This document shows, piece by piece, positions 2,610 to 64,000 of a stretch of 64,000 bases of DNA (its first letter is position 1; every line of letters begins with the position of its first letter). Both the position numbers and the translations under genes were made by a program. The notes below the pieces were generated by a model, which saw nothing but the letters and a program-made list of their open reading frames with translations, was not told the DNA's origin and did no database searches. Origin of the DNA: Psammoneis japonica (Eukaryota); NCBI GenBank assembly GCA_008632985.1, contig QPGO01000099.1, positions 103,679-167,678 on the forward strand, read 5' to 3'.

Positions 2610-3940
2610 TAGCGTTCGGTAAAAACCGTGGTTACGTTCTTGTTCCCATTCCAATTGCTTCTGATGAGGAATTGACCGAGGATACCAACGGATACGAAAC
2701 TTTTACCAGTGCTTTTGAGGCCATGGTTGGTCTGGATCCCGAGTTACGTCAGGATGTCTTGTTTGTGATTGAAGAGAGCGACAGACTGGGAAGGCCTTTG
2801 AAGGAAGACAAGCACCCTCCTCGTGTCCTCGATTCCTTCATGCTTCCCGATTCATTGTCCCATGAAATGAAAAATGACACAATGCATGGGGCAATCAGAG
2901 AATGCAAAGACAAGAGTTCCTGGGATCGCATGTGCGATTTGCTCTTGGTGTGCAGAGACCGCGAAGGGAACTGCGATGTTCCCAGCAGGCACAAAGAGGA
3001 GGGGATGAAATTGGGGCATTGGTCAAGCAGACAATGGCGGGCCAAAAAGAGCAGGATTCTAGACATTTCTGGTCAACAAGTGCTCAAGAAGGCCGGTGTT
3101 GAGTGGAGCGTGAATGACGATAAATGGAATCGTGTTTACAGCCTGCTCTTGGTTTGCTTGGAGAGAGAAGGCAATTGCAATGTTCCCAACAAATGCATTG
3201 AGGATGGCTTTGCCCTTGGAGTTGGGTTGGACAACCAATGACAAAAACACAAGCTCGGGAAGCTTGACATTGTCAAAGAAGAAAAACTCGAGGAGGCTGG
3301 AGTTGAGTGGGACCTTCGGGCTGAGCAATGGGAGACTGTGTTTTCTCATCTTGAACAATTTGTGGTGCGCGAGGGACATTGCAACGCTCCAAGGCATCAC
3401 AAAGAGGATGGGGAGAATCTTGGAAGCTGGTTGGGCGAACAAAGGAAAAAAACAAAAGGAAAGGGAAACTGAATGCTTCTAGACAGGAACGATTGGAGAA
3501 GGCTGGAGTTGAGTGGGACGTTCGGGCTGAGCAATGGGAGACCATGTTTTCTCGTCTTGAACGATTTTTGGCGCGTGAGGGACATTGCAACGCACCAAGG
3601 CATCACAAAGAGGATGGGGAGAATCTTGGAAGCTGGTTGACCAAGCAAAGGGTAGAAAAAAGGAAAGGGAAACTGAACGCCACTCGACAGAATTGACTGG
3701 AGCAGGCTGGAGTTGAGTGGGATGTTTTTGCTGAGCAATGGGAGACTATGTTTTCTCTTTTCGAACATTTTTTGGTGCGTGAGGGAAATTGCAAAGTGCC
3801 CCATTGTCACATTGAAAATGGAAAGAGACTTGGATGTTGGTTGAACACGCGAAAGCAAGCATGGAAGGCTGGAAGACTGAAGAATAGCAGCACGAACCGA
3901 CTGCTGGATCTTGGCGTGTTTTCGTCCAACAGCAGTCTCC
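2610..3940 (+). pseudogene. 3' fragment of the SF2 helicase/helicase-associated (HA) repeat gene, hypermutated
   Basis: Near-identical to 63130-63980 and to the reverse complement of 37337-38460 (AFGKNRGYVLVPIPIASDEE...). In-frame TGA at 3239 and 3694; Tyr codons replaced by Cys/His. Confidence 0.9.
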
Positions 3941-4269
3941 ACTCTACGAGGAGCCTGTCTCGGTGTCGCCTCGTCGATGCCTATGAAAGAATAAACCAGT
4001 GAACATGGCATTGAACACTACTCAAATTATGATTTGGCCGTTTTATTCCACCAATCACTTAAACGTCCTCATGGTTCCAAGGTTTGTTGCACCATATACT
4101 GTGCGACACCATGATTGTAGGCATTCTGTTTTCGATCTTCACTGTATTGCAGCCGTCGTTGCCTATTCCTTGCCCCTTATGCTCTCTCCGAGTTTTTCTA
4201 TTAAGCGTTCACAAAAGTAGCCTGGTTCGAGAAGCATTTCGGAAGGCTACAGCGATTGCGTTTGACACC

Positions 4270-4832
4270 CCATACGAAACCGCAAATTTCGTTTCGAGCG
4301 CTGCCCTTGTCGGAAGCAACGTTGCGTGGATTGGATGGAGCAAACTTTGTCACCATGACTGAAATACAAAACGCCTGTATTCCTCATGCGCTGTGTGGAA
4401 GAGACATTTTAGGCGCAGCACGAACGGGCTCGGGAAAAACTCTTGCGTTTCTGGTGCCGGTTATTGAAAAACTGTTTTGCTCGAAATGCGCTCCATCCGG
4501 CGGGCCCGGTGCTCTTGTTTTAAGTCCAACTCGTGAGCTTGCGGTTCAGATCTTTCAAGTTTTGAAAAAAAGGTGGGACAACATCATGCATTGTCGGCTG
4601 GACTAGCAGTGGGCGGTAAAAAAGAGCATCATGTCGAACAACAGCATTTCGGATCCACCAATATCCTCGTGGCTACACCGGGACGTTTGTTGCAGCACTT
4701 GGAACAGACACCAGTTTGTTGTTTTCTGCAACGCAGACGAAACGAGTTTCTGATTTGGCTGCGTTGTCGCTGAAAGAGCCCGAATACCTTGGTGTACATG
4801 ATAAGGAGTCAACATCCACTCCTTCCAATTTG
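4270..4832 (+). pseudogene. DEAD-box RNA helicase DDX10/DBP4-like fragment
   Basis: Q motif (MTEIQ), [41 protein letters not shown]. Frameshift near 4570, the DEAD motif region is deleted, and the fragment is truncated. Confidence 0.8.
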
Positions 4833-5022: not shown

Positions 5023-6327
5023 CTACGATTCATCTGCCAATTGAATCACGCGTTGGCACTTTTGCTGCAAGACCCGCAAGGCTTCGGCTACAAGAACAGA
5101 TGGAGTTTGCATGCCGACACTTTCTACCGAGAATACAAAGTGATTTGGAATTCGCGACATGGAAATGGACTCTTTCAGCTTTGGGTTTCGCATGTAATTG
5201 CGAGACATGGTACACGCGTAGGGATTGCAAACCCGGGCCTTGACCTTGGTGCCTGGCGTGTCGCTCGAGTCTGTCGGAACAAGATCAAAGACACCTGGTT
5301 CATAGAGGTGCACCAATTCGTCCGCCAATTCATCGTAAATGGGTTGCGTAATTTCTACTTGTGGCAAGAGGCGATAACTTGCCGTTGCCACGGGAGAATA
5401 CTTGGCATGATCTCGGCCAATTCCAACACGAGCATGCGCCTCCAACTCAATCGATTGTCCCGGACGTAGCTTGGCAATTAGGATATCATCATGGACGGGA
5501 TGAATGCCATCTGGAAACCTGGTTTCTTGATCTCCCTGTGGTACCCATTCCAAGTCACGACTGTACACATGCTTAGTATACGGACGACCGGGTGTTTCAA
5601 TAGCAGCCTTTTGGTGTTTGGCGGCCGCCTCGGCTGCCGCTTGGTCGAGTTGTGAATTTCCCATGACGGAACCGTCCTCACCAGAAATGATTGGAGCATA
5701 TGTACTTTCCGAGTCACCTCCATTCGCAGCGGCGGCCTCTTTTTTCGTACAAGACACGGCCAATCGAAAGACTATTGTGTTTCGATCGGTGGCATCATCG
5801 TCTTGGCCAACAACATCAAACAAGCGTGCGTCGACATTGAGTGGAATCAATCCCAATCGATGCGCCAAGACTTCGTCGTGAATAATGGAGGAATTGTTCC
5901 ACATGTACACGTGTTCAATCGCTACTGTGGGTACTTCACTCAGCAGGATCCTACGCAAGGCATTGGCAAACGATGCGTCAATACCCACCATTTCAAACAC
6001 CATTTCATCATCTGTCTTTTCCAGAACGCGCATCGAAAAGTCGTTTCTGCGAATGAAATATGAAATTGTGAGAGCATTTTGATTTTTAGTAAGAAATACA
6101 TAGTAGCAGTATATGAAATGAATACTACACTGTACAATCAAATGTATAGTTCGTTTACTAGTGACGTACCGAAACTGCTTGAGAAACTCCTCACCGCTCT
6201 CAAAGCTTGACGGTCCTTCCTGTGGCATGTGACGAAATTCCAAACCGCTTTCTTTCACCACGTACATACCGCCACTGCGACTGCTGGACGCTGGTTTTGC
6301 TTCGTCTTGTCGTCCATCAGCTGCCAT
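5023..6327 (-). CDS. RPC40: RNA polymerase I/III subunit AC40 (RPC40/POLR1C); probable intron 6047-6169
   Basis: [67 protein letters not shown] 123-nt GTACG...GCAG segment translates as a non-homologous insert. Confidence 0.95.
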
Positions 6328-6451
6328 TGTCTTATGCTTAGTGTGTGGAGATGGACTTGGGATGCATAATGGATGCTGTCAGCTGTTGTTGTTGCTGCTG
6401 CTGGTGGTGATTGCTGTGCTTTTTTGTTTTCGTGGTGTGCTGTTGGCGTGG

Positions 6452-9326: not shown

Positions 9327-11561
9327 TTACAATTCCCTCATGGCTGCCTCTGGTGAAAACCGAATCCCCCCTTCTTTTTCCGAATCCACCAATCCCAACT
9401 TTTTTGCACTGGTAATCCAATACTGCGTCTTGCCCCGTGACTTGTCTGCTTCTCGTATCCTCAAGTAGCGTTCCCGAATGTTGGGTGGCAAGTGTCGGCA
9501 TTTGCGCAAATGGACCCGTTGCCATGATGTAATCAATCGATACAGTTCGGATACAGTCTTGGGGTAAAAGACCGCCATGGGTGCTTCAAATTTGGGATCA
9601 CACTTGTAGGATCGTGCTCGTGCACAATGGACACAGCGTAGTCCGACTCGATCCGATGCGAGCGCTTCTGGAGGAGATGACGTCGATGCATTGTCATCCG
9701 AGTCGTGGGGAATGACGGGGACATTGTAGTCGTCATTCAAGACAAAGACTTCTAACAGTTCTCTTCGCAAAAAGCAGTGCATGGCGTTGAGCTTGGAATT
9801 GTCTTCGGGCAAGGCTAATCTTGTAGGAAACGCCACTGTCGCACCCGAGTCTTCGCTCTGCGACGATACAATAGCAAGATCAGGTTGCTTGATGGTGTCG
9901 TTGTCCTTGTTAGCCTTGTCGTTGGGTGACGCGGAAGACGCCTTCTTGGTTGTTGCTTCTATTGCTGCGGTTGGACTCGAAGTAGTGGTGGTGGTGCTAT
10001 CTTGCGTCTTTGTTTCATCGCTTGATTCACTACTGCTACTACAAGAGGTCTCTCCCGCCTCTTGCTTGTCTTCTACAGCCGCCTCTGCTCCCTTCCTTCC
10101 TGGGGTATCGGGTTTGCAATAGGGCGGTGCCGAGAAAAAGGGACTGGCTGGCGAGTTTGCCGTAACGACTTTGCGCTTTTTTCTCTTCTTGACGGGCGGC
10201 GAATCATATTCGCCATAGTACGAATTGTTGGTCGAATAGCACTGTGCTCGATTAAAATAGGATGGAACCGAAAGCGGTTCGGATCTTGGTCTTGCGGCAG
10301 CGAGATGATGAGGCATGGGAGGAGGACCAACAGGACGACGCACCACCATGGCTGGCGGGGGTCTCTTGTGACCGATAAGAGTCGTAGTAGCAAGACCAGG
10401 CCTAGCCATGTGGGGAGGAACCTGTACCGGTGGATGCGGTCTTTGCGGCGGCGGTGCAGGCATTTCAACTTCGCTACTGGTTGAAGTCGAGGCTGCAACC
10501 TGAGTCGACACGGGGTTCTTGTTTTCGGCATCCTTGTTTTCGGCTGAACTTGTACTAGCAGCAGCTGCTGCTGCAGCAGATTCCTCCACTGTAGGAGGAC
10601 TCGTTCTCAATCCCAACAAAATCGAAGCCACATCTTGCATTCCTTCTTCCTTTTTGCGGGCGGTATCCTTCGCAGTAGCACTAGCGGGAGCTGTAGTCTT
10701 TGTGGTATCAGTATCAGCCGCTTGTTGAGCAGATAATGTTGGTACTTTGGCTTGAGGTACAGACTTGGGCGTCACCACTGCAGTTGTTGCTGCCGTTGGT
10801 GGAGACGGTGGCTTGGTATTCAATACTCGGCTACTCTCTCCCAGCGGAGTCTGTTGTGGTGCCTGCTGTACTGCAGCAGAAACAGGAGCTGCAGCAGTAC
10901 TTGGTGCCTGAGACGCCGGAGGACCTGTTCCTGGCCGTCTCAACACGTGAGGAGGAGGCGGTCTCATGTGCGGTGGTGGTACTGGTGCTCTTACGGGCAC
11001 TCCATTCTTCATCACGACAACATGTTGTTGTGTACCGTTTGGTGAAGAAGAAACTCGAATAACTGGAGCAGGACGTGGTGCACCGGTGTATACCAATTCA
11101 TGTTGTGGGTGACCATGACCAGGCGGAGGACCCACTACCCGTTGCTGAGGCAGTGGCGGCAGACGACCATTAATAGCTCCTGGTGGCAGAGGCATCTTGA
11201 CTGCAGCATGAGGAGGAGGCGGTGGTCCGTGGTGATGAATAACTACAGGAACTCCAGGCCGAGGAGGAGGAGGACCTGCTCGAACATGAGGCGGAGGAGC
11301 AACACCACGTAAATGCGGAGGAGGAGCGTATCGTCGTCCTCCTGCTGCAATTACCGCTGCATGATGAACGGGATGTGGCGGAGGCATTCGTGGAGCTGCT
11401 GCTCCGGGAGGAGGACGTCCGTGGGGAATGTACCGAACGCCAGGAGGAGGAGGTCCGCGATGCTGTGGTTGTTGTAGTAGTGTACCAGCTGCAGCTGCGG
11501 CAGCTGGATTGATTCGAGCATGATGAGGATTCCCAACGGGTCCAAGCCAAACTGGTGACAT
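9327..11561 (-). CDS. Pro/His-rich protein with basic NLS-like patch (KKRKKRK) and the same C-terminal CxxC..H..C domain
   Basis: 774-codon ORF with likely start MSPVWLG. Domain: LALPEDNSKLNAMHCFLRRELLEVF...RVGLRCVHC...FYPK...WQRVHLRKC...SRGKTQYWITSAKKLG. Confidence 0.8.
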   Translation of the reverse strand: MSPVWLGPVGNPHHARINPAAAAAAGTLLQQPQHRGPPPPGVRYIPHGRPPPGAAAPRMPPPHPVHHAAVIAAGGRRYAPPPHLRGVAPPPHVRAGPPPPRPGVPVVIHHHGPPPPPHAAVKMPLPPGAINGRLPPLPQQRVVGPPPGHGHPQHELVYTGAPRPAPVIRVSSSPNGTQQHVVVMKNGVPVRAPVPPPHMRPPPPHVLRRPGTGPPASQAPSTAAAPVSAAVQQAPQQTPLGESSRVLNTKPPSPPTAATTAVVTPKSVPQAKVPTLSAQQAADTDTTKTTAPASATAKDTARKKEEGMQDVASILLGLRTSPPTVEESAAAAAAASTSSAENKDAENKNPVSTQVAASTSTSSEVEMPAPPPQRPHPPVQVPPHMARPGLATTTLIGHKRPPPAMVVRRPVGPPPMPHHLAAARPRSEPLSVPSYFNRAQCYSTNNSYYGEYDSPPVKKRKKRKVVTANSPASPFFSAPPYCKPDTPGRKGAEAAVEDKQEAGETSCSSSSESSDETKTQDSTTTTTSSPTAAIEATTKKASSASPNDKANKDNDTIKQPDLAIVSSQSEDSGATVAFPTRLALPEDNSKLNAMHCFLRRELLEVFVLNDDYNVPVIPHDSDDNASTSSPPEALASDRVGLRCVHCARARSYKCDPKFEAPMAVFYPKTVSELYRLITSWQRVHLRKCRHLPPNIRERYLRIREADKSRGKTQYWITSAKKLGLVDSEKEGGIRFSPEAAMREL

Positions 11562-12337
11562 GGTTGTTATAGCTTTTGTTGTTTTCGTTTGATTGGTATG
11601 GTTGCGTTGATACTCCAATCGCAAAAAAGAGAATGGCAACAACGTTTGCACACCACGAAGTGTCGCGTCGTGTGAAAAAAGGCGGTTGATTTTTTCGACC
11701 CGGTTTTCGCCTGCCGGCCTCTGAATTTGTTTGTATCAAAAAACAGAGTCACCAAAACATGTGCTGCTGACATGCGTTCTATTCTTTTTCGATAGTAATC
11801 GAGTAGTCTGTATGCACATACTGGATTTGTACGTTTATCAATTCGGGTCGATTCTTGTTTTCGCCGAGAAACGGTCATTTTAGCGACAGCGATCTGCACA
11901 AACAACTAAACAATCGATAGTGTTGTATTATCATCTACAATCACAAAGCAATATATATTTAATTTTGAATGTTTAGCATTTCCTCATAAAAGCGATACTC
12001 TACACGCAATCCCGCTACTATCAACCTAATTGTACACTAACAATGATGGAACTCATAGTAAATTCAATTAGAAAACATCAACATGAATGTTGTTATAAAA
12101 TTTTGCGCTATCTGCAACAAGGGAGCGTTCGTTTGACATGTTGAACTCACGAAGATTTGAATAAACTACTATCGATTTGCTCTTCTGCAGGAGATTGATT
12201 TTGAGAACATCCGAGAAGGATTTCTCGAAGCTTCACTGTCTTCTGTCGCGGCTACGAGTATGTGTTTGCTTGTTGCGTGTCACAATGCTGAAAGACACAC
12301 AAAATGCAACAACAGCGACAACATTATATCAACTCTT

Positions 12338-13189: not shown

Positions 13190-16100
13190 CTAATTTTTAG
13201 CAAAAACAACTCCAAGACCCAGCAGTCGATTCTTGCGGTTGTCTTCAAGTTTTCTAGCCTTCCATGCTTGCCACTGGGTGTGAATCCAGTTTCCAAACTT
13301 CTTTCCCATTTTCAATGTGCCTGCGAGGCACTTTGCAATGTCCCTCCCGTTCCTTGAATTGTTGGAGAAGTGAAAACATTGTCTCCCATTGGTCTTCCAA
13401 CACGTCCCACTCCACTCCAGCCTCCTTCAGTCGTTCCTGTCGAGCATCGTACAGTTTCACTTTTTTTTTTTTGTCTGCCCGCTGCTTGTGTGACCAATTT
13501 CCAAGATTCATCCCATCCTCCTTGTGACGAACTGGCACCCTGCAATGTCCCTCCCATTTCTTGAATTGTTTGACAAGAGAAAACATTGCATCCCATTGGC
13601 CTTCCAACACATCCCACTCCACTCCAGCCTCCTTGAGTTTTTTCTCTAATGACGTCAAGCTGCTTGGCCTTGTGTTTTTTTTCATTTCCCCTTCAACCAT
13701 GCTCCAAGGGCAATGCCATCCTCAACATGTCTACGAGGAACATTGCAATTGCCTTCTCTCACCAAGTGGTGTGAGCCAAAAGCAGGTTGCAACCACGACT
13801 CCATTTGCCCTCATTCACCTTCCACTTGACACCAGCCTTCTCAAGCTTTTGTCAATGAGAAATGTCCAGCATCCCATTCTGTTTGGCCTGCCACCCATTG
13901 TCTGCTCAACCATCTCCCCAAATTCATCCCCTCCTCTTTGTGGCTTTGAGAAACTTGGCAATTCCCTTCATGGCCTGCATGCACTAAGAGCAAATCATGC
14001 ACGCAATCCCAGGAACTCTTGTCATTGCATTCAATGATGGCGCAATTCATGACATCATTTTTCATTTCAAATGACATTGAATTGGGGGGAGCACGAAGGA
14101 ATCGAGGACGCGAGGAGGGAACTCATCATCTTGCAAAGGCCCTCCAAGCCTGTCACTCTCTTCAATCATGAACAAGATGTCCTGACGCAGTTCAGGATCG
14201 AGACCAACCATGGCCTCAAAAGCAGCTGCAAAAGTTTTGCATCCATTGGCATCCTTGGATGACAGCTCTTCATGAGAAGCAACTGGAGCGGGAACAAGAG
14301 CGCAACCACGGTTTTTGCCAATCCCTTTCTGGCTTGCATGCCCAATCATTTTGATTTGCAAAGACTGAACTGCAAACAGGGTCAGCCATTGCAGCCAACT
14401 CCCAATCCACCTTGTCAACACCTGTTGCCAGTGCTTTGCAGTTTGCAATGATGGATTTGGGCACAGACTTTGCTTTCATCAAAACCTTCTCCTGCTTTGC
14501 AGCAGACATTTTTGGGCTGCCACTTGCAACAAATGCAGAGATGATGACGTTGCCTCATTGCACTTTTCCAGCAGAATCTGCAAATGCCTGAGCTCTTGCA
14601 TTTGCAGAGTGAAATGAAACTGTGCAACTCACACTGAGTTTGTGAAATGATGTTTGAGTGGCAAACGGAGCTCCAAGAACACCCATGATTTTGCCTCTGT
14701 CCAACATGCAAAGTGTTGCAGGAGCCACAGTGTTGAGCTCCACACTTTCTTGCCAGCTCCGTTCTTCAATGCATGGTCTAAACAGCAGCTTGTTCACAAA
14801 ACTCTGAACGCCAGAAACAATTTGATCAGGGGCGCCTGACTTTGGCAGATGCACTCTAGCTCTGGGTGGGACCTCGTGCTGCTGAACTGTGACATCAACA
14901 GTTTTTGGATCGCACCGCATGTCATGCATGCAGAAAGTTACAAGACTTCTGTGAAATTTTGCATCATTTTGTGGCACACTTGTTGAGCAATCTGTCCAAC
15001 AATTTTTGGCATTTTTTGTTGCAGTGCAATTCTGTGATATCTCAATTGTGCAGGGCAGGTGCATTTGCAAAAATGTGGAGTGGCAAGAGGCACAATTGCA
15101 CAACAAACTTGGCCGTTTGAATTCTCATGCTGCAGAGCTTGTGCGCAGAATTCTGTGGGCCCAATGTCACACAGAGTCCCACCCAGGGCTGGAACACATT
15201 GGCACAAGTGTTTGGGCTCCAAACTTGTCTGGCTTGGATCCCAACATGGTCACTTGTTTTGGGGACTTGGTGTGGCGATGAGGTGCAGCCATTGGAAACA
15301 GATGACAGTCAACTGGAAGCAACGAGTTACAGAGAGACAACAACCAAACAAATTTCCAGCCCCTTCCATCTCGTGCGCCAAGTTTTCTAATGGCTTCTCC
15401 TGCCCTGGGGGCAGTGAGTTGCAACTGCAGGTTGTGAAGGGTGGCTTGTCTTCGCGGGAAGACAGAGATGCCACCATGTTGTTGACGGGTGTCGTGCAAG
15501 CCTCAGAACAGCTGGCTTGGCTGGCCACAATCAGCCGGGAGAGAGGAGGGTCAAACAGCCCCCCAGAATCATCCATGGATTCCAGTGCTTGACCCACCAG
15601 AATCAGTTTTTTGGTGTTGCACAAATTGCCAACTCAGTTCTTGATCCAGCTGGACCCACTCCTTCTTTTGCCAATCTGGCAAGTGTCTCTAAACTGAGCA
15701 ATGTTTTTTCCCACCTTGGTGTGGAAGCACTGCATGGGCCCGGTGTTGATGCTCATCTCTCGGTGACTGAGGGTTGGGGTTGTTGTCTCCTGCCTCTCGA
15801 CTCGACTTGTCCCAGTCACCTCCATGATGATGCTGTGAGATGGGCTCAATTGTGTTGTCATGATGATTGTCATGTTCTTGACATCCGCTGTTTTTCTCTG
15901 CATCAGATGCACTTGCTTTTTCCGGTGGCACCTCAAAACTCCAATCTGTTTGATTTTCTCTGCACTGCTGATGCTTTTTGCTTCTTGACAGCAAAGGATT
16001 CCCACGTCCATCAACCTGTGGTGCCACACATTTCAAAATCTCCATTCTCTCAGCAAGTTTGTGTGTGAGATCAGCCATCATTGTGTCGTCAAACATGTCG

Positions 16101-16230
16101 GTGCTGCTGCTGTTGACGAAAGCTGAAAAAACTGCTGCCAGCAGGTTTTGCGCCAGCATCCCAAACCTTGACCAGAACAAAAGAGAGCCAACAACTTGCA
16201 GTGCAAATGCAATGAATGGTGAGCAGAGAG
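13190..16230 (-). pseudogene. Diverged, near full-length hypermutated copy of the SF2 helicase-HA gene, interrupted by a MITE
   Basis: Translated fragments match the intact gene: KLILVGQ..SRLIVASQASCSEACTT, AHEMEGAGNLFG, KSPKQVTMLGSK.DKFGAQTL, SFHSANARAQAF, ANCKALATGVD, HA repeats. Many frameshifts. Confidence 0.85.
14857..15191. mobile_element. ~335-bp MITE-like insertion with 16-bp imperfect TIRs
   Basis: Left TAGCTCTGGGTGGGAC (14857-14872); right GTCCCACCCAGGGCTG (15176-15191; reverse complement CAGCCCTGGGTGGGAC). It lies between two nearly adjacent parts of the helicase reading frame. Confidence 0.7.
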
Positions 16231-19200
16231 TGTGTGGCATCATTTCAAGTTGACAGAACAATGCAAACAAGAGGCTGCAAAAAGCAAAACCCGGTCACAA
16301 ACGCCATTGCCCTGCTTTGGCAGCATGCAGTTGCAGCCAGATGGGTGGCACAGATTTGAAACAAATGGTGCATGACCAAACAGCAAACAGTTTCCACAGA
16401 CGAGCCCTGCCAAGCTCCTGGTGTGGCTCAATTCTCCAACACAAGTGGTCTTGTCAGGCAGAGCCATGGTGCCAAAACACTCTCTTTTCAGCAAAATGTG
16501 GCAGCACATGTGCAACTTGGTCAGCACTCTCACCTGTTTTGCCATGGTTCCATGTCCTCTGGATTCCAAGCATGCGCCACTTTGACAAAAGCCCTTTTTT
16601 GTGCCACAAGTTCCCCCAACAGTGGTCTTGTCATGACAATGGCTCTCAACAGCTGTGCCGCAAATGGACAAAGAACATTTCTTTCTGCACTTTGAGATTG
16701 CTGCTTGTGTCATTGGAAAAAAGCAAGCAAGTGTGGTGCAGCAGCCACAAGGCTCGCATGTGTGTCAGAGTGTCATCCCTTTGTGACTGCTCTGCTGTCT
16801 TCATGGTTCTTCCATCATCCCACACATGAGCTTTGCCATCACAACCCCTCCGGCATGCAATGCATGAGCTTCATCTGTCTGAGCCACTGCAGCAGCTCAA
16901 AACTGATGCTCCAAGTCTCCAGTTGATGCCTCTTGCAGCTAAAAAGAGCCACGCTGCAGGCTTGTTTTCCACAACTGTGTTGCAACATCTTGCAATGACC
17001 AGATTGTTCTGGAGTTGCTGCAAAAAGTCATGGCCTTGACAACAAACAAACAAACAAACAAGCAGCTCAAAGGTTGCTGCTGCTTGTTGTGCCACACCAG
17101 CACACCAGCTGGCTTTTGCAGCACAGCCCAACACAACCCCAGAGGAGGTCACCTTGTGAAAGAAACAACAAAAGAAAACTCCCAGCTCAGCACTGCACAT
17201 TGCAGCAGGATTCATTGTTTGCAAGAGATGGGCACCCTTGAAACAGACAAATGGAAAAGGAGCGAGGGTGGCTCACAGGCTCTTGAAAAGTCCCCCTCTC
17301 TCCTGGAGGAAGTTGCAGCAGATGTGAAGCAGATTTTTGTTTTGGCTGAGCCAAAGCAGCTCTCAACCATTGAAGTTGGCATTTGTGAGAGTGTGGCCAT
17401 GCTCACTTTAGCCACAAGCACAATGTTGCTGCTGCCGGTGTGGCAAACCATGACACATGTGGAGTGGCTGCCATGCCGCTGCAGCGGTGCTGGCAGAGAG
17501 TGTGCATGGAGAGGTGGTCAAGCAGGCCACCTGTGCACAACAGCTTGTGTGCACAGTGCTGCCCGCAACAGCGAGATCTTGACATGTGCTCCTGTTCACT
17601 TTTTGCAAGCCCAAGGAAGTTTGCCCAGACATGATGACTCTGAGCTTGCCTGTGCATTTGTGCAGGTTTTGCACAAGCTGCCTTGTGGGGTGATGCTTTT
17701 TGATGACAACAACAAAGAGCTTTTTTGTTTGCATGCACACAAACATCTTTTTCAACTTCTGGTTTGGACAGATGAGGTTTGATGTGTGCTTTGCAAGGTG
17801 CAAAACATGTGGACTTTCTGCCAAGATGCAGCAACAGTGTGACATCTTTGACCAAACCTGTTGCCAGCTCACTGGCGCTGCTGTGTTTCCACGGATTGTC
17901 AATGGCAACAAGTCATTTTTATGCTGTGCTTGCAGTCAAGGGTGCCACCTGCACAAGTTTGTCCTGTGGCCAATCTCAGAGAAACAAACAAAGCAACAAC
18001 AAAGTGCCACACTGTGAGTCTCTTGGGTCAAGTGCATCTCTTCTCAAGGTGGAAGCCAGAGAGAGTTTGAACACAAGTGATGCTGTGCCTTTCTCCAGTG
18101 CAACAGTCAAAACTAATTTCTCAAAGAGGCTCATCCCAACACACGCTGAAACTGCCACACACGATGACCCCACTCACAGAGCAAAAGTGAGGAGAAAGCC
18201 ATCAAAACGTCATTGGCTCCTTGCACATTTGGCCCATGGCTGCACAAAGAAACTTGCAGAAAAATGGGCAAAGCACCAGCAGAGTGGGTGGGTGCCCAAG
18301 GCTGCCAAACAATCTCATGGCCCCACAAGAAGATCATGAGTGAGCTGAGTGGTGCCAAAAAACTCAACAGCTGTGGCAGCAGCAGCAGCAAATTGTGCTC
18401 TGGTGACATGGACATGTTGGCAGACTGCATGCTTGTTCCACAGGCAGTGGGAGCCTCAAAAAGCATCTGGCAGACATCACAAAATGCCCAAAATCCACAT
18501 GTGCTTGTGACAGTTGGCTTGGAAAAAAGTCAAAAAAGGAGTGGCCAGTGCCGCAGAAAAGTTGCAGTGTGCCAAAAGCAGCATTTTGTTGAAGATCTTT
18601 CACTTTTTTTTTAAGGACAATCTCCAGCCTCATGCAATGTTGTGGTTGATGCACATGGACATGAAATGCTTTTGCCTTGACAGCGGCTTGGAGCGCAAAC
18701 TCATCTCTGCTCTTCTCCACAAGCAGAGGCAATTTTGTTTGAATGGCAAGGTTTTGAAGTTTTGTCCTCATCTTTGGCTCTGAGGCAGAGGACGCCGAGC
18801 TCTTGTTTTGACCAAGTTCATTTCTTGGCATCTTGGCTGCAAAAGACAAAGGTTGAATGGTGTTGTGCAGTGCGTGCACCAGCGCGCAAGCGCAGCTGTG
18901 TCATGACGGACACAATCAAGTGGGAGCCTGTGTGCTGGCCCAGGGGCCAAAGGCCAACATTTCTCACTGACAAACAAGCCCCCCCCCCCCTGCTTGTTGG
19001 CTCTGCAGATGCCCTGTCTCTGAAGAAACGAGTGCCAGCACGCACTGGAACCGCGTCTGCATGTTGCACTTTGTCTCACATGTTGTTCCTTGTCCTTGTG
19101 TGCAGCTGCCTTGCCTTTGGTGATGGGTGTTTTTGTGCAGAGTGTCAGGTCTCCCCACTTTAACATCCCGGTTACTTTTGCGAGCCGACTCTCGCTTCGC

Positions 19201-35303: not shown

Positions 35304-35409
35304 AAGCGCCCCAAAAACAGAATTTGCGTTTCCAGACGAGCCTGTTTACCTAATAGAGAACCATTGATTCTGATACCCGAAACAACAGAGCACTAGTTCT
35401 CTGATGCCT

Positions 35410-40060: not shown

Positions 40061-40479
40061 AATCGAGAATACCTGAATAGCAAGAAGCCAAAAAAGATGC
40101 CAACATTACGCAATTGTGATGTAGGGCCCTATGCATGATGCGATCGATGCATGCGATGAATGCGTAGGGCCCTATGTATGTGTTCTGGGCCGCGTCGCAT
40201 GTCCGTCATCCGTCATACTTGAAAGCTTGCCTTGGTTTGGCAAGGTGTCGGAGCGACGCAGTAGAGTGAGGCATCCGAGCGAACGTAAGGGTGAGGCCTG
40301 GGAGCATTGGTTGGTGCCGAGGTGACTGGAGTAACTGGAGAAGGAATAAGGTCGAGGCAACCTCCCAACTTCAAACTGGGACAGACGAACCCTTTGTTGC
40401 TGGATCATCCCAATTGCGAACATGCGAACCCCGCTCGATAGATTACCCAATTCTTAAAAATGAGACGCCTTTCCCAGTA

Positions 40480-46274: not shown

Positions 46275-49200
46275 ATGGCCACCACCTCAGAACGAAATGC
46301 CGTCGCAGCCGACGAGTCATCAGTGCCTACTTGCCCCCTTCCAGAGAACGCTTCCAAACACCCTGAAGTGTCTTCTGATAAAAGGGGGCAAGTAGAGCTC
46401 AAGGCTCTGGAGAGCAAATGTGGCTCAGAAGTGCGCTCGCTTCTTGCGGAGTTTTTCCGCAGCATGTCGAGCAACAAGCCTTGGTTCTTTGCTGTCAAAG
46501 AGCCTCTTGTTCAGATGGAGAGCACCAGCAATGGAGAGGACATCGAAAAAGAGGCATTGAAGCCAGTGCCTCTCATGGGCACTGCTTTGTGTCTTCCTTG
46601 TTCGGGCGCATGAAAACGATCTGTTTGTCACCATCCTCGCCATTGCCGGCCTCGTCGAACAAAAGGGCAAGCACCTCAATGTCAAAAGAGATGTGTGGCA
46701 GGACTTTTTTAATGATCACAACCTCAGCAATGCAATTGTTGTCAAGAAAATCACCCCTGACACTGATGGCAAGAAGGTTCATTTCACTCGTGTCGGAGGC
46801 AAGTTTGGCAGCCTTGAAATTGTGAAACAGTTTGCCAAGGATCCCAAGGAACGGTTGTTGAAACCAAAGTGTCAGATGACCAAGCTTCGGTCCAGTTTTG
46901 TTGATGGGATCAACAGCCTTCTCCTGGACATTCTCTCAGATCATTGCATGAGCAACATGACAGATGGCGGTTTGGAAGGCGATGACATGAACAATGCTGC
47001 TGATGCCAAGCAAGACGCAGGTGTGACGGAAGAGGAGAAGATGGAACAAGAAGAAGCCAAAGACGGGATGGAGGAATCAGAAGAGCCAGTTGAAGCATCT
47101 GAAGAAACAAGCGAGGAAGTTGGACAGAAGGAACCACTGGAGTTCGAGAAGACAATCGACATTGACGAGAATCTTTGTCCTCAACTCTCTGGACTGTCGA
47201 GCGGCATCAAGCGATGGGAGCCATCTAGATTGGTTCACGACATGGTCAAGCTGCATGAAGCTGCATCCATGGAGATCACTTGTGGAGATCGGCATCCAAT
47301 GGTTTTGGCGCCAATCCCAAGGACTGCGAAGAAGAGCTGCAAGAACTTCCGTGACAGTTGCGCTGGGAGAAAATGGCTTCACGTCATTTTAAGACACATT
47401 GGCGGAGGTGACAAGACAGTTGGGACAGAAGAAGCCGAGTCATTGGGGGCTGAGTGGGTGTGTCAATGGCCAGCTACAAAGTGTGAAGCAGATTTCATGG
47501 CAGCATCCAAGGCTTCCGGTCTTCCCGTGACGCACAGAATGGACAGAATCGCAGCTGCTGCCATGTGGAGCGCTGCAAACGTCACATCAACCAGCAGCGA
47601 GTCATCCCAAGACACTTGCGGCACCAGTTTGGCAAGAGAATTGTTGTGCCGGAACGGGATGTGCAAGCCCTGGGAGATGGACATGTGCCTGCGTCGCATG
47701 GATCACATGACCACAAAAAGAACAAGAAGAGCGACGAGCACAGCGACGACACCAAAAACGTTGAAAAGATCAATTGCTGCACAAGGTCCATTCTAGATTG
47801 CATTTCCACTGAAGTGAATGGCGCACTTCAAACTCAGGTGTCATCTGAGGTTGACAACGACAAGGCATTGAAGAGCTGCCCCACCCGCAATGGCCTCGGC
47901 TGGAATCTCATCTGTGGCGGAGATCATGGGAAAAAAGAGTCCAGTGCGGTGGGCAAGCTCCACACGCACAGTGCTGAACACCGGAGAGCTCTGCTGGAGA
48001 AGAGTTGGCATGAGCTCAACACAAAACAAACAGATGCGGGAGGGTGCCGCATCTTCAAGTGTGCAAGCATCCAGTGCAAGAAAGACAACTCCGACATTCT
48101 TGCTGACACCATCTCAGCAACAATTGACAAGGACATTGAGATGTTGCTCTCACAACAGTCAGTTGGAATCAAGCAAGGAGGCGACAGCAGCAATGTCCAA
48201 TCCCTCTGTGTCCAGAAAGGCGCAACAAACATGAGGGTTGAGAAACAAAACCAAAGCAACGTGATGGCCTTTGACGCAGAGGGTGATGGATTTGCTGCCA
48301 CCATGCATGAACCACTTGCCTTGGACGGTGACAAGTGTGAGATGATGCTCGACGTCCCACAATTTACAATGTGCGTCATGGGTGACCTTGCATTCCATGC
48401 CAATGTTCTGGGCAAACCAAACTCGAGCGGCTGTTGGTGCCACCTCTGCAAACTGAACCACAAAGAGTGGAACGTAGCTGGGCATGAGAAAGGAGAGAAG
48501 TGGACTGTTGAGGAAATGAAGGCAGCATTGCAAGAGCACCTAAATTCCGATCAGGTCGACGCCATCAAGGGGGCACGCGAGAAAATGCACCACACAAGCA
48601 TCTCACCTCAGCTTTGCATTTGCCCGCCACTTCACATGGAAACAGGGTTGGCAAATGAAGGCTGGGACGACCTTCAAGAGTGGATTGATGAAGAGCTGGG
48701 GGAGATTGACGCCGAGGAAGTGCAGGCTCGGACAGCCGTTGTCACCGCCAGCACCATGATGCAAGCTGCCATGGAGAAACAACGCAAGCAGAGGGAAACA
48801 GCAGAAGTGGAGGTGAAGGATTTGAAACTCACCAAGAAGACACCAGTGAGGCAGTGCAAAGCCGCAAAGAAGGCTGCCAATGGCGAGTTGGAAGCCGACT
48901 TGAAAGATCGCATCAAGGCAACTGAGAGCGCAATTGAGAGCAAGGAAAAAGAGATTAGAGAAGCAATGGATGATTCCAAGAAAAAGCAAGCTTGCTTGAG
49001 GAAATGTAAAGAACGGGTTGCCAAGCTGCGGAAGGCTCGTGGGTGGCCCATTGATGGCATCGCCGCTCAAACTGAGGCAATTCTGAAACGGTGCGGCACA
49101 AAGCGTGAGGCGTGCCATGGCGGGGATTTCAACGGTGGATCCTGCAGGAAAATTGGGGAAAACAGCCAGGAGACAATGTCAGAGATGACTGAAGCCATTC

Positions 49201-49754
49201 TGGAGGCGAGAAAGAAACAATCAAGTCTCACCGATGAGCAAGTCAAAGAAAAATGCAGTGAATGTGGCACCCTCTTCGGTCTGTTGGACTCACTCTTTGC
49301 TTCCATTCAGGTGGTTCACCCCACTGAAGAAGAGATTGCCACAACAGAGGAAACAACAAATCGCACTGAAGTCTTGTGGCATGGCTTGGGGACATCCATC
49401 ACAACAAAAATGCATTTGGTGTTGGATCATTTGGCAGATCAAATGCACGAACATGATGGGATCGGCAACAAGGACGAAAACCATGTCGAGGTTGAGCACC
49501 AACACTCTCACAAAGCCAACATCAGAACCCAACTAATCAAGAGACATGATGCACAGAAAAACGCCCAGATCAAGTTCCGCCAGATTGCCAAAGATGCTTC
49601 AGCAGCAGAGAAACGGGAGGAGGTGACGCAGGCCTCGAAGCAAAAATTCAAGGACTGCTCTCGCAAGACCGGGCATTTGGAGGCATCAAAGAAGAAGAAG
49701 GCCATCAAGGATGAGAAGAGGGATCATTTTAGAGGTGGGGGTCAATGCATGTAA
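46275..49754 (+). mobile_element. Chapaev/Transib-type (RAG1-related) DDE transposase, frameshifted and hypermutated
   Basis: GGDHG, GDLAF..VLG..CxxC, PPLH..G, HGGDFNG, ITTKMH..DH, ENHVE.EH. Split over ORFs 46275..46613, 46693..47796 and 47565..49754. Confidence 0.72.
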
Positions 49755-49980
49755 ATTGGCTCACCTGATTGTTGCTTTACGTGTGCCACAAACGAATGGC
49801 AGAAAAGTGAGCGTCGTGTGCAAAGGAAAAACGGCATTGGGCAAAAAAGTGAGCGTCGGTGCGTTGGATGCAATTTTTTGAAATTGTGCAGAAATGTACG
49901 TCAGTTTTCTGGCATGTCGAGTTTTGCACCAGACCTGCTGAGCACGCTGCGACCCACGAGCTGAAGCTGTCGTGTTCGCT

Positions 49981-51181
49981 GGGCGATCCAGGAAACTTCA
50001 AAGGCTTCAAAAGATTCCATGTTCCATGACATTTCTGATGTTTTTTCTACAAACGGAGCTCACAACTTGTTGGCGCCATTTAAATGAGGGGCAACAGACA
50101 AAAGATCGAACAAACAAGTTGTGTTTTCGAAGTTGTTTGAAGTGTTCGAATGTTGTTCAAAGTGTTCAAACTTTTGTTGCAAATGTGTTGCCCTGCTGTC
50201 ATTTGGATTAAAAGAAAAAATGTTTGAACTTTCATTGTCGCCCTTTTGGTCACTTCAAACTGATTCAAACAAAGTTCGAACTTGTTTGAACAAGTTCGAA
50301 GTGTTCGAAGTGCATGGCAGTGCTGTGTGATGTGTCTGTTTGCACAAACTGCATTTTCGTTCGCACTGCCCGGCACGCGACACTTGTCCCACCGTGCTTC
50401 ACAACAATGGCACCAAAACTTGGCCGCCAATTGCCCAAAACCACTCATTTGGATGCTGACAAGCAATGCATGGGTCCTCCATCAACCGCTTGGATTGACA
50501 ATGCCATGGTTCATCACCTCAAAACCAATTTTGTTGTCTGTAGAACCGCTCCTCTGTTGTCATCAAGACAAACCACATAAAACCCTGTGCAAACGAAAAA
50601 TGACAAGCTTCCATTGATGACATCAGTGCAAAAATGGCTCACATGATGTCATTGCAATGCCCTGCACAATCGCTCATGGGTTGATTGACAAGTTGGGGTC
50701 ATCTCTCACAGCAGCGTCAACATGATGTCGCATCGGAAGAGGCGGCATTTCGGTCATGGCAACATGGTTTTGTGCTGATTTGTGCAAGCGCTGTTTTGAC
50801 CACGCATCCAAAAAACACTCATGTGCAGAAGCAACACCACGCAGTGTGGCCCAAAGTTAATGACATGGTGTTTCCTTGTCAACATTTGCCCATCGCTTGC
50901 TGCAGAAGGCAGACAAATCAGAAAGCACAAATCATGTTCAACAATTTAAGTCATGTGAGACTTTGAAAATGTTTGAAGTGCTTCAAAGTGTTTGAACACT
51001 TCAAACAAGTTCAAAAACTTTGAACAAAGTCTGAGGCAATGACAAGGGCAACAGAGACAGAAACCTCAAAATGTTGGAAGCTTTTGTGTCCATCCTGCAC
51101 GAGGTCCACACAGGGATGTGTTGACAGGAGTTGGGAATCTTCTGTTTCTTTTTCAAAACTTTGAAGTTTCCTGGATCGCCC
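49981..51181. mobile_element. 1.2-kb non-autonomous DNA transposon with perfect 23-bp TIRs and subterminal TTCGAA/TTTGAA repeats
   Basis: GGGCGATCCAGGAAACTTCAAAG at 49981-50003 and its exact reverse complement at 51159-51181; clusters of GTTCGAA/GTTTGAA/TTCAAA at 50120-50310 and 50960-51025. Confidence 0.8.
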
Positions 51182-52509
51182 TGCAACTGCAGCCATTGAT
51201 TGATGTTTGCATGTTCATTTTCTCAATCACGGCCCAGCAATTCTGCAAGACTGGCAGGCAATGCAGAGAGTTCAAGTTTGGATGTGACTGTTTGAGGGGC
51301 CATTCAATGCTGACTCACATGGTGGGCTTGCCATTTCAACCAATTGAAAGCACTGGCTGTGAGAGGCATCCTCAGAGCACATTTGTTTCACTTGGAGTGC
51401 TGCTCTCTGTTGTCTGCAGGTGGCTGCTGCCATTTCAACATGCCCCATTGAATCCGCGACAAAGATTGGCTTTGTGCAGGATGCTGGGCACTTTGTGGAA
51501 AGGCGCAATGATGAGTTTAGGACAAAGCACTGTTTCACGCGTGCGCACAAGCTGCACGGCATTTGTCTTGGGGGGCAAATGCGAAGAAACGGCAACTCAT
51601 GGAATGGCGTCCTCATGCAAACCTGCAAAATCTGTGACAAAAGTGGCTGTGAAACAATGCATGCTAGAGTGTTGATTTAGAAGTGGCACTGCATTTGTTG
51701 GGAAGACTTTGGAACAGCACAAAGGCGCACACACTGCAGCAGGTTGCTGGGGTCGATCGCATGAGTTTCAGCGTTAAACTGCATGCTCTGTTGGTGCACC
51801 TGACTGTGTGCTGAGGGGAGGCAACACTCACTCACAACAGCCATGTGCTGCCTCAAGACAATGATGATTTGACACGTTCTTCCAAATGCTCGATTTGAGT
51901 GAGCTGTGCAGACAAAGTCAAGCTTTCGGTCTCTTTGAACGTGGCATCGGCGTGCAATGAATGGAAAAGATGGGACACCCCCGCACATTCGCAGGATCGA
52001 GTGAGTTTAGCCTGTGCTGCAAGAGGATTGGCATTTGCAGCTAGACACTAGCATCTACGCTGGAAAGGGGAAACAGAGCACCGTGCATTGGAGGCACAGC
52101 AATCTTTTTTCGAGCAGTGTGCAGTGTCCGACGAAGTTTGAACCTCGACCAAGTTTTTGATTGTTGCTGCACAGATGCTGCTGGTATTTTGACGAGCTCC
52201 ACTCAGACCACAAGATTAGACCAACGCCATTAAGAAAACGCCAATGTGTAGGGACTATACCTTGCAAAGAGAGGTTAAGCAATGATCCATGATGCGGCTG
52301 TGATTTGTGATTCTTGACTCGTGGCTCGTGGTGATCTTTTTTCTGTCCGTGACCCGCCTGAAGATCGTTTCGCGGTTCATCGATCATCGACTCGCATCGA
52401 CGCTGATGTCGACTGTCGAATGTCGAAGCTTTCACACAAGAGGGTAATACAACACACAGTATAAAACAACACGTCCAGCCTCCTCATCAGTCTTATTGTT
52501 GCTTCCATC

Positions 52510-61307: not shown

Positions 61308-61525
61308 GATGATGCGATTCCAGCGACATGGATAGTGCGGGCATTCAGTGTAAAGAAAGAAGAAAATGAGGCGCATCGCATGCACAAGGATGACGGATGA
61401 CGGACATGCGACGCGGCCCATAACACATGCATTGAAATCATGCATAACGCATGCATCGATCGCATCATGCTGGCGTACAGTGTTGGCATCTTTTTTGGCT
61501 TCTTGCTATTCAGTTCTTCTCGACT

Positions 61526-64000
61526 ATGAATAGCCTTTGTAAATATCTATTTGTAGCTCTGCTGTTTCAGCAGTTATGCGTCTCTTTTCCTTTTCAACCG
61601 GCACTGTTTGGCTTACCAAAGAGCAGAGATTGTTTTCACCTGATGAAATCAGCTACATTAGAGATATTCAACGACACAATCATAGACCAACACGCTGAGA
61701 TGACAATCGCAGATGATCAAAGAGTGTACCTTTCAGAGAATTACGGAAAAAGGGCTGTTATGATGCTTGAGAATCAAGAACTGCCAACTCCTCCGAAAAT
61801 TAGTGATAGAGGAGAAAGTGCCGCCCCTGGAACTAGTACGTCACTCATGAGTCAAGGCGGCTTCCAAGATCTAGATGGTCGTCACGATAGCATAATAGAG
61901 TCCATCATACAGCATTACAAGGGAGGTGAGAGTACTTCAGGTGGAGGAAACGGGGACAATTCAAATGGCTTATCCGGAGAGATATCTCGTTTTTCGAGAG
62001 AAGAAAATTATTTCCGCAGAGCAAACGTCCAGCTTCCACCGGGTTGGGGTAAAACGTTGTTGGCCTTGGAAACACTTTCGCGGTTAGCACGAGAAAGAGT
62101 AGGTCCCGATCGATCAAAAGTTCAGTGAGTGACATGCGCAACACTGAAACTCATCTTGGTCGATCAAGTGCTGGATTTCTCGGATGGCTCTGGACTTGTT
62201 GCCGACATTTCGCACTCGAGATTGATTGTGGCCAGTCAGACAAGCCGCACCGAGGCTTGCACCACATTGGTTGACAAGTCTGCAGCTTTTCTTCCCACTC
62301 ATGAGAGTGAGCTGCGGTTCATTGCCTGCGCTTGCAACTCTCTGCCACGGGTTGGAGAGGCTCTTCAAGCGATTGGAGGCAGCATTTCCTTTGGTATTTT
62401 TGACGAAGCACACGAGATGGAAGGAGCAGGGAGGCTATTTGGATACGGTCTCTATGATTCGTTTCTTCCAGTCGACTACCGTCTCTTCCTTACAGCAACT
62501 CCTCGTCGGTACACACAGTCTCCGAAACAAATCACCGTTCTGGGATCCAAGCTTGACAAGTACGGCGCGCAAACACTCTTGCCGAAAAGGGAAGCAGAAA
62601 CCACTCGTTGCCTCTCGGGCATTAGGAGCTTTGTCGATGAAGCGCTCTTTGGACCGTGCATCGAACGACGGACGTTGATAGAAAGCGTGGAGCAAAACAT
62701 TACAGTCCCCATTACACTATGTGTTGTGGATCAAGACGAGGTCAGTGAACACGCACATATCGATTCCAGCCAGCTCTCAAAAGATACCTTGCTGCCTTTT
62801 GCAATCGAAGCGGCTTTCTATAAGTTAAATGTAAGCCGTGCTGTGTCGTTCCACTCTACCAATGCTCGAGCACGGGCTTTTGTGGACTCGACTGAAACGG
62901 CGTTGAAGGACGACATATCTACATTTGTTGTTTGTGGCAGTCCCAAAATGTCTGCAGTAAATCGGGAACATGTGCTACAAGAAGCCAGGTTTGCATCGAA
63001 ATCTATCGTTGCGAACTGCAAAGTACTGGCGACAGGTGTTGACGAGGCGGATTGGGAGTTGGTTGTAATGGCCGATCCCGTTCGGAGTTCAGTTCTGGCA
63101 CGTCAAATGATTGGACGTGTAAGCCGGAAAGCGTTCGGAAAAAACCGTGGTTACGTTCTTGTTCCCATTCCAATTGCTTCTGATGAGGAATTGACCGAGG
63201 ATACCAACGGATACGAAACTTTTACCACTGCTTTTGAGGCCATGGTTGGTCTGGATCCCGAGTTACGTCAGGATGTCTTGTTTGTGATTGAAGAGAGCGA
63301 CAGGCTAGGAAGGCCTTTGAAGGAAGACGAGTACCCTCCTCGTGTCCTCAATTCCTTCATGCTTCCCGATTTGTTGTCCTTTGAAACGAAAAAAGACATC
63401 ATGAACCGCGCCATTAGAGAATACAAGGACAAGAGTTCCTGGGATCGCATGTACGATTTGCTCTTGAAGTATAGAGACCGCGAAGGCAGTTGCAAAGTTC
63501 CTTCTAGGCACAAAGAAGAGGGGATGAGTTTGGGGCATTGGTTAAGCAGACAACGGCAGGCCAAAAAGAATGGGATGCTGGATATTTCTCGTCAACAAGC
63601 GCTCAAGAAGGTGGGAGTCGAGTGGAACGTGTACGATGATAAATGGAATCGCGCTTACAGCCTACTCTTGGTTTACCTGGAGAGAGAAGGCAATTGTAAT
63701 GTTCCCAGTAAATACGTTGAGGATGGCTTTGCCCTTGGACGTTGGTTGAGCAACCAACGACTAAAATATAAGCTCGGGAAGCTTGACATTGTCAAAGAAG
63801 AAAAACTCGAGGAGGCTGGAGTGGAGTGGGACGTGTGGGAAAACCAATGGGAGACTATGTTTTCACTTCTCGAGCAATTCAACGAACGGGAGGGCCATTG
63901 TAGGGTACTGTTTGGTCACGAAGAGGATGGGGAGAACCTTGGAAGGTGGTTGGACACCCAAAGGAAAGCTAAAAGGAAAGGGACAATGGACGCTTCCCGA
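61526..64000 (+). pseudogene. Near-identical inverted copy of the 37337-40060 helicase-HA gene with a premature TGA at 62126; runs off the window
   Basis: Close match to the reverse complement of 37570-40215, including upstream DNA (61385-61525); the stop lies within a mutated patch. Confidence 0.9.

Follow-up and report, generated by a model that had tools for sequence, protein, structure and literature searches.

What process could strip the TpA step almost completely from discrete parts of a chromosome while the sequence on either side keeps a normal TpA content? The question is raised by 64,000 nucleotides of the diatom Psammoneis japonica (assembly GCA_008632985.1, contig QPGO01000099.1, positions 103,679 to 167,678 of the forward strand), a stretch that is here called the window and within which all coordinates are given. 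Six sharply bounded, TA-poor tracts make up 22 kb, or about one third, of the window, and pooled over the six the TA dinucleotide stands at 7% and the CG dinucleotide at 34% of the normal level. Here, we report that TpA has been erased in these tracts by A:T→G:C transitions on both strands, with conversion of CpG to TpG or CpA in the same DNA. The edited adenine is preferentially followed by C, the changes were made after the affected sequences had been duplicated, and the loss of TA has outrun that of CG.

The tracts, numbered D1 to D6, were delimited by change-point fits at 2745-3884, 13255-19160, 26859-35070, 41744-43342 (the right edge uncertain, within 43123-43356), 46393-52007 and 62100-62394. 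The support intervals of the edges span about 30-100 bp, the finest resolution that the density of TA permits. All six had been marked by eye in an earlier note made from the letters of the window, and its estimate of about 15 TA between 26830 and 35070 compares with a count of 14 in the 8.2 kb of D3, the largest tract. Segments of 500 bp hold 0-5 TA in the tracts and 10-41 elsewhere, and those lying wholly inside a tract have an observed/expected (o/e) ratio of 0-0.19 for TA and of about 1.4-2.15 for TG and CA together. The longest gap free of TA spans 1771 bp (28903-30674), for which the chance is about 8e-33 at the normal density of 0.0417 TA/bp. When 22,265 bp of tracts were pooled and compared with 37,740 bp of normal sequence, TA made up 0.31% against 4.17%, CG 1.88% against 5.59%, and TG and CA 10.9% each against 7.22% each. 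The combined loss of TA and CG (7.57 percentage points) is thus nearly balanced by the gain of TG and CA (7.36 points), as would be expected if both had been converted to TG or CA. GC content is little changed, being 0.48-0.49 in D1-D5 and 0.52 in the 295 bp of D6, compared with 0.474 in normal sequence. The tracts occupy the gaps between intact genes and, because the stop codons TAA and TAG have been lost, they fill with long spurious open reading frames (ORFs): overlapping frames of at least 150 codons on both strands number 14 in D2 and 12 in D3.

The direction of change can be read from genes that have both intact and altered copies in the window. The ancestral reference is an intact helicase-HA gene (HA, helicase-associated domain) on the reverse strand (37337-40105), an ORF of 922 codons with ResIII/DEAD, Helicase_C and four HA domains according to Pfam and with a normal TA content. 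A second intact copy, also recognised by Pfam, lies on the forward strand at 61385-64000, its ORF (62129-64000) running off the end of the window. Self-comparison of the window aligned this copy to 37590-40221 with 94.4% identity over 2632 bp. The two near-identical genes face in opposite directions at a distance of 21 kb. Three decayed fragments of this gene lie nearby, and the helicase-HA gene has been copied repeatedly within the region. For polarisation, only sites at which both intact copies agree were counted. In the decayed copy at 13190-14620 in D2, 37 ancestral TA have become TG in 16 cases and CA in 14, while one was retained and six changed otherwise; 54 ancestral CG have become CA (21) or TG (17), with seven retained and nine changed otherwise. 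The remaining dinucleotide classes were retained at 30-82%, the lowest being GT (18/61) and AC (39/67); for the most part these two border converted TA and CG sites. Strand-folded and polarised with two outgroups, A>G changes amount to 44/109 at TA against 61/742 elsewhere and C>T changes to 50/160 at CG against 45/614 elsewhere, with transversions at 98/1625 in the same alignments. Taken over all tract alignments (five pairwise and that of D6), 139 ancestral TA have yielded 53 CA and 44 TG, with 10 retained and 32 otherwise changed. These counts bear out the direction claimed in the earlier note, namely erasure of TpA on both strands, opposite to that of fungal repeat-induced point mutation (RIP), with CpG→TpG/CpA alongside, and the four paralogue examples that it quoted were all recovered in the alignments, at 2896-2953 and 62131-62142. 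Two more general explanations were considered and rejected. GC-biased gene conversion would not be specific to TA, and the change of CG to TG or CA goes the opposite way; foreign DNA with a dinucleotide signature of its own is set aside by the host paralogues, which polarise the change.

The edited adenine has a distinct sequence context. Counted per strand, A>G conversion is most frequent at TAC (43/74), followed by TAT (21/57) and TAA (11/51), and TAG is the least edited (12/64); the difference between TAC and TAR (R being A or G) is highly significant (Fisher p=1.5e-7). The edited A is followed by C in 48 of 97 conversions, and where the choice of strand was informative, the adenine with a 3' C was the one edited in 40 cases and the one left alone in 7 (p=1e-6). 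The survivors agree independently with a preference of TAC over TAT and, by a wide margin, over TAR: survival of TA is 0.42 in TTAA, 0.22 in CTAA/TTAG, 0.16 in CTAG, at most 0.08 in the rest and 0 in ATAC/GTAT. TGC/GCA is the most enriched trinucleotide of the tracts (1.82-fold). A weaker effect of a 3' C was found outside TA, with 21/147 at VAC against 24/452 at VAR (p=9e-4; V being any base except T). No effect of the fourth base on TAC was seen (TACA 16/25, TACC 9/17, TACG 8/14, TACT 10/18), nor do TG-type and CA-type outcomes form strand runs; the edits are interleaved (runs tests P 0.28-0.88).

Comparison of copies that have both been altered informs on the timing. Two direct repeats of about 400 bp in D3, at 26990-27387 and 31658-32052 on the forward strand, lie 4.7 kb apart with the appearance of long terminal repeats (LTRs) and are 82.5% identical. 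Between them are 11 double mismatches of TG with CA, and no other type of double mismatch occurs more than twice. Each copy has therefore resolved the same ancestral palindromic step on its own, once duplication had taken place and within the chromosome. D1 and D2 likewise differ in outcome at 6 of 14 shared ancestral sites, which also speaks for change in place after duplication; the concordance of their outcomes (8 the same, 6 different) is not significant. The four-way alignment of the HA-repeat region is noisy. This part of the helicase genes consists of tandem units of 204-206 bp that encode the HA-domain repeats, present in 2.1-2.5 copies at 3286-3794, 37431-37853 and 41873-42376, and alignments there are ambiguous for that reason.

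The two dinucleotides have been lost at different rates. TA survival is uniformly low, at 0.04-0.13 across all six tracts (0.13 in D1, 0.07 in D2, 0.04 in D3, 0.07 in D4 and 0.12 in D5), while CG survival falls from 0.85 in D6 through 0.61 in D5, 0.55 in D1, 0.26 in D2 and 0.21 in D4 to 0.20 in D3, so that TA loss saturates first. Simple arithmetic on these survivals puts the per-site rate of TA loss at about 3-15 times that of the CpG decay alongside it, and the two are separate processes. D6 is a patch of about 300 bp on the forward strand at the 5' end of the second, otherwise intact helicase-HA gene. Compared with its sister copy, this patch has had 5 of 13 TA changed to TG and 4 to CA, with 2 retained, and it keeps 11 of 14 CG and an open frame; the flanks on its two sides retain 28/37 and 54/58 of their TA. 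D6 also holds several differences outside TA, for which reason it may stem from gene conversion by a mutated copy. Diatom transposons have been described as CG-methylated (PMC9998398), and the CpG decay in the tracts is most simply read as deamination of 5-methylcytosine (5mC). It resembles the decay of methylated transposons in vertebrates, plants and some fungi, which would account for the CG half of the pattern and leaves the faster, independent TA half to be explained.

The tracts contain several kinds of damaged DNA. D1 lies inside a forward-strand duplicate (2611-3939) that covers the 3' portion of the helicase-HA gene, D2 comprises a decayed, near-full-length copy (13190 to about 15730) and 3.2 kb of other DNA, and D4 comprises a 3' fragment (41677-42399) with other DNA; D1, D4 and part of D2 are hence copies of a host gene. 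The left edge of D1 falls within the duplicate: at 2611-2750 on the forward strand all six ancestral TA are retained and identity to the intact copy is 97.9%, after which it drops to 88%, and from 2787 onward 25 of 28 ancestral TA are altered. D3 combines the LTR-like pair with fragments of an FG-GAP_2 gene on the reverse strand (27593-28659; Pfam PF14312, E 1.7e-7 and 2.5e-5) and, at 32148-32590 on the forward strand, a mutated duplicate of 43310-43762, the upstream region and 5' end of an Hsp70-TPR gene. Of the 18 reference TA in this duplicate, 8 have become CA and 4 TG with none retained, and reference CG have become CA 10 times and TG 9 times. Mobile DNA is represented by the LTR-like repeat and by one RAG1/Transib-like transposase gene, whose remnant lies in D5 together with short repeats. 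The latter, at 50120-51030, are direct and inverted repeats of TTCGAA, TTTGAA and TTCAAA variants, and they look like a CG-containing unit caught at differing stages of CG→TG/CA decay. No convincing terminal inverted repeats were found at the edges of D5. A Pfam search of 143 ORFs from the tracts returned just the FG-GAP_2 scraps and matches at chance level, with no reverse transcriptase, integrase or transposase model and no viral gene. The description of the affected DNA in the earlier note as transposons, duplicates and gene fragments is therefore apt, with the qualification that no transposon domain is visible to Pfam. On balance we regard the tracts as silenced, non-genic islands of the diatom nuclear genome, in which the remains of transposons lie beside dead duplicates and scraps of genes.

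The transposase of D5 deserves separate attention. An open frame of 755 codons on the forward strand (47487-49751), whose product P0121 contains no tyrosine at all, belongs to a large transposase-like family that has no name. Exhaustive HMMER searching gathered 870 cluster representatives, typically of 1000-1300 amino acids, and the family profile matches D5 at 47586-49727 with E 1e-142. Other searches were blind to it: a word index gave no homologue for P0121, a sequence-profile search of PDB gave coiled-coil noise alone, P0121 as the sole query against metagenome loci found no relative, and Pfam matched no model either to P0121 or to 12 full-length relatives. The predicted fold of a full-length relative (mean predicted local distance difference test score, pLDDT, of 91) resembles the structures 6dbw, 6b40 and 6pqx in Foldseek (E 1e-10 to 4.5e-4), and the family keeps the invariant Asp, Asp, Glu and CxxC positions; on this structural model the relative has the fold of RAG1, RAG-like and Transib transposases. 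The family median for tyrosine is 2.37%, and at columns where relatives have tyrosine P0121 has C, C, C, H and S. A comparable loss is seen in an environmental member of the family, P0232 (1126 amino acids), which has 6 tyrosines against 13-30 in 11 close relatives (16-30 in the nine that are full-length). At 12 conserved tyrosine columns it shows five Cys, three His and four Tyr, and it retains 24/26 Phe, 10/10 Trp and 16/16 Cys. Another environmental member, P0286 (800 amino acids), is likewise poor in tyrosine, with 5 residues. These proteins suggest that a TA-erasing process has operated in at least one other assembly.

We consider it probable that two context-specific transition processes have acted in the tracts and that the faster one is an enzymatic deamination of adenine, of the TadA/ADAT type, confined to silenced and marked domains. 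The fast process would convert TpA to TpG or CpA by A→G change at 5'-TA-3' on either strand, taking TAC first, then TAT and then TAA and TAG, so that near completion mainly YTAR sites such as TTAA would be left. Chemically, adenine in DNA would be deaminated to hypoxanthine, and the likely enzyme would be a polynucleotide deaminase of the TadA/ADAT type that is recruited to marked chromatin domains or has access to no others. The slow process would be ordinary CpG→TpG/CpA decay, as expected of 5mC deamination in methylated DNA. Since the change of TA to TG or CA removes TAA and TAG and makes no new stop codon, damage to proteins would come from missense scrambling, for example of Tyr to Cys or His, and not from truncation. 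Known polynucleotide adenosine deaminases all need U or T before the target (PMC10661471, PMC11472039, PMC11087585). Bacterial TadA edits mRNA at UACG, turning the Tyr codon UAC into Cys (PMC11472039), and the preferences given for ADAR and for TadA/ADAT2 are 5'UAG and 5'ACG, respectively (PMC10661471). The T at -1 and C at +1 typical of the TadA/ADAT motif, as in the UAC of the tRNA-Arg anticodon loop, are both found here, TAC being the most edited context and the strand choice standing at 40:7. A 3' C on the edited A thus fits a TadA-type deaminase better than it fits ADAR or DNA polymerase eta (Pol eta), and among the candidate mechanisms of the earlier note it is the TadA-like deaminase that is favoured. 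A→I editing that is read as G, with an obligatory U or T before the edited A, is common to TadA and ADAT2-ADAT3, although the known enzymes act on RNA hairpin loops and not on kilobases of chromosomal duplex; amphioxus ADAT2 is reported to deaminate DNA (PMC10354150).

Several points weigh against this reading. The G at +2 that the native TadA motif needs (UACG) has no counterpart, TACG being edited at 8/14 and TACA at 16/25, and fungal Tad2/Tad3 mRNA editing favours UAG (PMC11087585), which is the least edited context here. The interleaving of edits on the two strands means that a deaminase specific for single strands would need repeated access to both. The signature may equally be described as T→C at TpA with a preference for a 5' G, so that a route through modified thymine may apply; the deaminase, the inosine in DNA, the methylation, the chromatin marks and any role in defence are all putative. 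The reads that carry the tracts stem from one sample in one study, which probably also supplied the assembly, with neither platform nor library type on record. Finally, three of the four testable tract edges coincide, within resolution, with the end of helicase homology, which keeps a trigger that senses homology alive; the fourth, the left edge of D1, lies 82-171 bp inside the duplicate.

The single provenance of the reads and their unrecorded library type favour an artefact, that is, sequencing, base-calling or polishing error on modified DNA, but we hold this explanation to be very improbable. One public sequencing run carries 91% of sampled words from 26001-36000, and k-mer contigs built from that run span 26876-33590 and 42199-44023; each piece is 0.9-1.8 kb long (0.9-1.4 kb in D3) and differs from the assembly at 0-4 positions. 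The reads thus give the tracts as assembled and do not restore TA, and error in assembly or polishing is ruled out. Word depth in these contigs is 59-70 in the tracts, the same as over neighbouring genes, and this even depth renders a base-calling artefact unlikely, with the proviso that the contigs derive from a single run and not from an orthogonal platform. The changes are moreover coherent, in that Tyr columns read Cys or His in the open frame of 755 codons and the repeat copies differ by TG against CA, and the environmental P0232 shows a like loss of Tyr to Cys and His. No RNA run was among the public runs listed as carrying tract sequence. An alternative that accepts the sequence and moves the chemistry to the other base is oxidation of T at TpA to 5-hydroxymethyl- or 5-formyluracil by an enzyme of the TET/JBP type in marked chromatin, with pairing to G and T→C change. 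Dinoflagellate 5-hydroxymethyluracil favours TpA, and 5-formyluracil gives A:T→G:C changes. The signature is symmetric between strands, and the data are described equally well by T→C at (G/A)TA and by A→G at TA(C/T). None of our results supports this thymine route, and the U/T at -1 that deaminases require is the more economical fit, so we rate it as improbable, if less so than an artefact. More doubtful is an origin in the repair of methylated DNA, as a by-product either of error-prone Pol eta synthesis that follows T:G processing, with its WA→WG signature (W being A or T), or of a thymine glycosylase that misrepairs G:T replication errors at TpA. T:G mismatches must indeed form in these tracts, as their CpG decay shows, but A>G at AA (26/287) is not raised over CA (22/215) and GA (13/240) and falls well short of TA (44/109), which tells against the Pol eta proposal of the earlier note. 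In D6, 9 of 13 TA were lost and 11 of 14 CG kept, and D5 has likewise kept far more CG than TA, so TA loss does not follow CG deamination; a near-complete removal of TA under a strict TAY rule (Y being C or T) is also unlike polymerase error.

Equally remote is the idea that RNA, cDNA or single-stranded DNA intermediates were deaminated first and then inserted, so that the tract edges would be insertion edges. Sharp edges and the transposase gene in D5 speak for it, and there is a likeness to ADAR and APOBEC3, which inactivate selfish nucleic acids by deamination, ADAR also preferring U before A. Those enzymes act before integration, however, whereas the 11 TG/CA double mismatches between repeat copies, the unmutated edge inside one duplicate in D1 and the D6 patch inside a resident gene place the change here after duplication in the chromosome; moreover, both strands are affected without runs. 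ADAR-type editing as such was rejected: its 5' T is present, but a 3' G, which ADAR favours, is here the poorest context for editing (TAG 12/64 vs TAC 43/74). A processed-pseudogene origin of the copies was also dismissed, since there is no poly(A) or poly(T) at their ends. The earlier note had called the process repeat-targeted and RIP-like, and of the alternatives this one has the most to recommend it, though we still judge it unlikely. Mutation would then follow the recognition of duplicated DNA by its homology, perhaps during the sexual cycle, and diatom DNMT4, which groups with fungal RID (PMC9998398), could take part. As in fungal RIP, dense transition hypermutation within sharp bounds disables repeated or mobile DNA where it lies and distorts its dinucleotide content. 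Many targets are duplicates, and the edges near the ends of homology, with the left edge of D1 starting inside, recall the way in which RIP tapers at the edges of a duplicate. Yet RIP, which depends on RID/DIM-2, makes C→T changes at CpA, creates TpA and stop codons and mutates both members of a duplicate pair (PMC2621366; bioRxiv 10.64898/2026.01.13.699255). Here the change is A:T→G:C, a chemistry beyond a cytosine methyltransferase or deaminase, TpA is destroyed and no new stops arise. The 94.4%-identical helicase-HA pair is unmutated save for the patch of about 300 bp in D6, which means that duplication alone is no trigger, and only the first member of the pair 32148-32590 / 43310-43762 is mutated. 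The dates of the duplications are uncertain, so the argument from spared pairs is not absolute. The nucleocytoplasmic large DNA virus (NCLDV) insert that is hypermutated at TpA in the alga Bigelowiella natans is, moreover, reported to be single copy (bioRxiv 10.64898/2026.01.13.699255). We therefore think it more likely that silenced domains, in preference to homologous sequences, are targeted by the adenine deamination proposed here.

B. natans provides the closest parallel. In mutation-accumulation lines of this rhizarian, two viral inserts together gained 231 mutations, of which all but one (230) were A→G or T→C. The authors report that every one of these lies on TpA, describe 124 TpA-poor clusters across the genome and propose ADAT2 (Mettrop et al., bioRxiv 10.64898/2026.01.13.699255). 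Both the focus of A→G and T→C change on TpA and its confinement to discrete regions poor in TpA and rich in CpA and TpG recur in P. japonica, and the system that acted there would be of the same kind. The clusters of B. natans, which reflect long-term change, are enriched for genes of transposon type and unannotated ORFs, and an adenine deaminase has been proposed in both cases; the separate CG→TG/CA component is present in the diatom. The two also differ. The rate was measured live in B. natans, while in P. japonica only the end state is seen. The measured targets there are viral, with a TpA content that is down by about half in the NCLDV region but unreduced in that of the virophage, while here about 93% of TA is erased and the targets are a Transib-like transposon, repeats and duplicates of host genes. 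CpG, flanking context and diatoms find no mention in the preprint text searched, and what the present locus adds is the rule of TAC over TAT and far over TAR, CpG decay at the same places, and an extension of the targets to host pseudogenes and a Transib-like element. The earlier note's statement that no description was known needs to be narrowed accordingly: the same TpA signature has been described in B. natans, and for diatoms full-text literature searches and a term look-up in a Phaeodactylum mutation-rate paper found no report of TpA-erasing hypermutation. The window thus adds a second, distant lineage for a barely known TpA process, which is real and striking and not without precedent.

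Several features lie outside the tracts. An RNA polymerase I/III subunit gene at 5023-6378 has diatoms as its best named relatives (Nitzschia, Fragilariopsis, Pseudo-nitzschia, Chaetoceros and Cylindrotheca; 55-74% identity), which by itself assigns the window to a diatom and not to Bigelowiella. An open frame of 802 codons on the reverse strand (9327-11735) has a normal TA content and matches no Pfam family. The first 1000 positions are GC-rich (0.60-0.62), with a low o/e ratio for TA (0.22-0.35) and a normal one for CG (0.83-1.09), a pattern unlike that of the tracts; four long ORFs overlap there on both strands, with no Pfam match. An Rfam search of the window gave no match.

The findings have practical consequences. 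Gene predictors will over-call genes in such tracts, and proteins that lack Tyr and are rich in Cys and His offer a simple database screen for the process. The family of RAG1-fold transposons, which occurs in many environmental assemblies as well as in a diatom, may merit separate study. So far, TpA-specific DNA hypermutation has been on record for just one rhizarian alga, in a preprint of 2026. Its saturated footprint in a diatom makes the mechanism testable, since major marine primary producers and genetically tractable species belong to this lineage. Any mechanism must now accommodate the order TAC, TAT, TAR, action on both strands without runs, action in place after duplication and a pace several times that of CpG decay. 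It is possible, and we put this forward tentatively, that diatoms and chlorarachniophytes share, by descent or convergence, a chromatin-directed defence based on a DNA adenine deaminase that makes A→G changes at TA(C/T) across silenced domains. Together with 5mC decay it would erase both self-complementary pyrimidine-purine steps, TA and CG, and it would put transposons, viral inserts and stray copies of genes out of action through missense changes, without making stop codons. If so, these algae would possess a natural base editor for duplex DNA with targeting on the scale of kilobases, and such an adenine editor of chromosomal DNA would also interest genome engineers.

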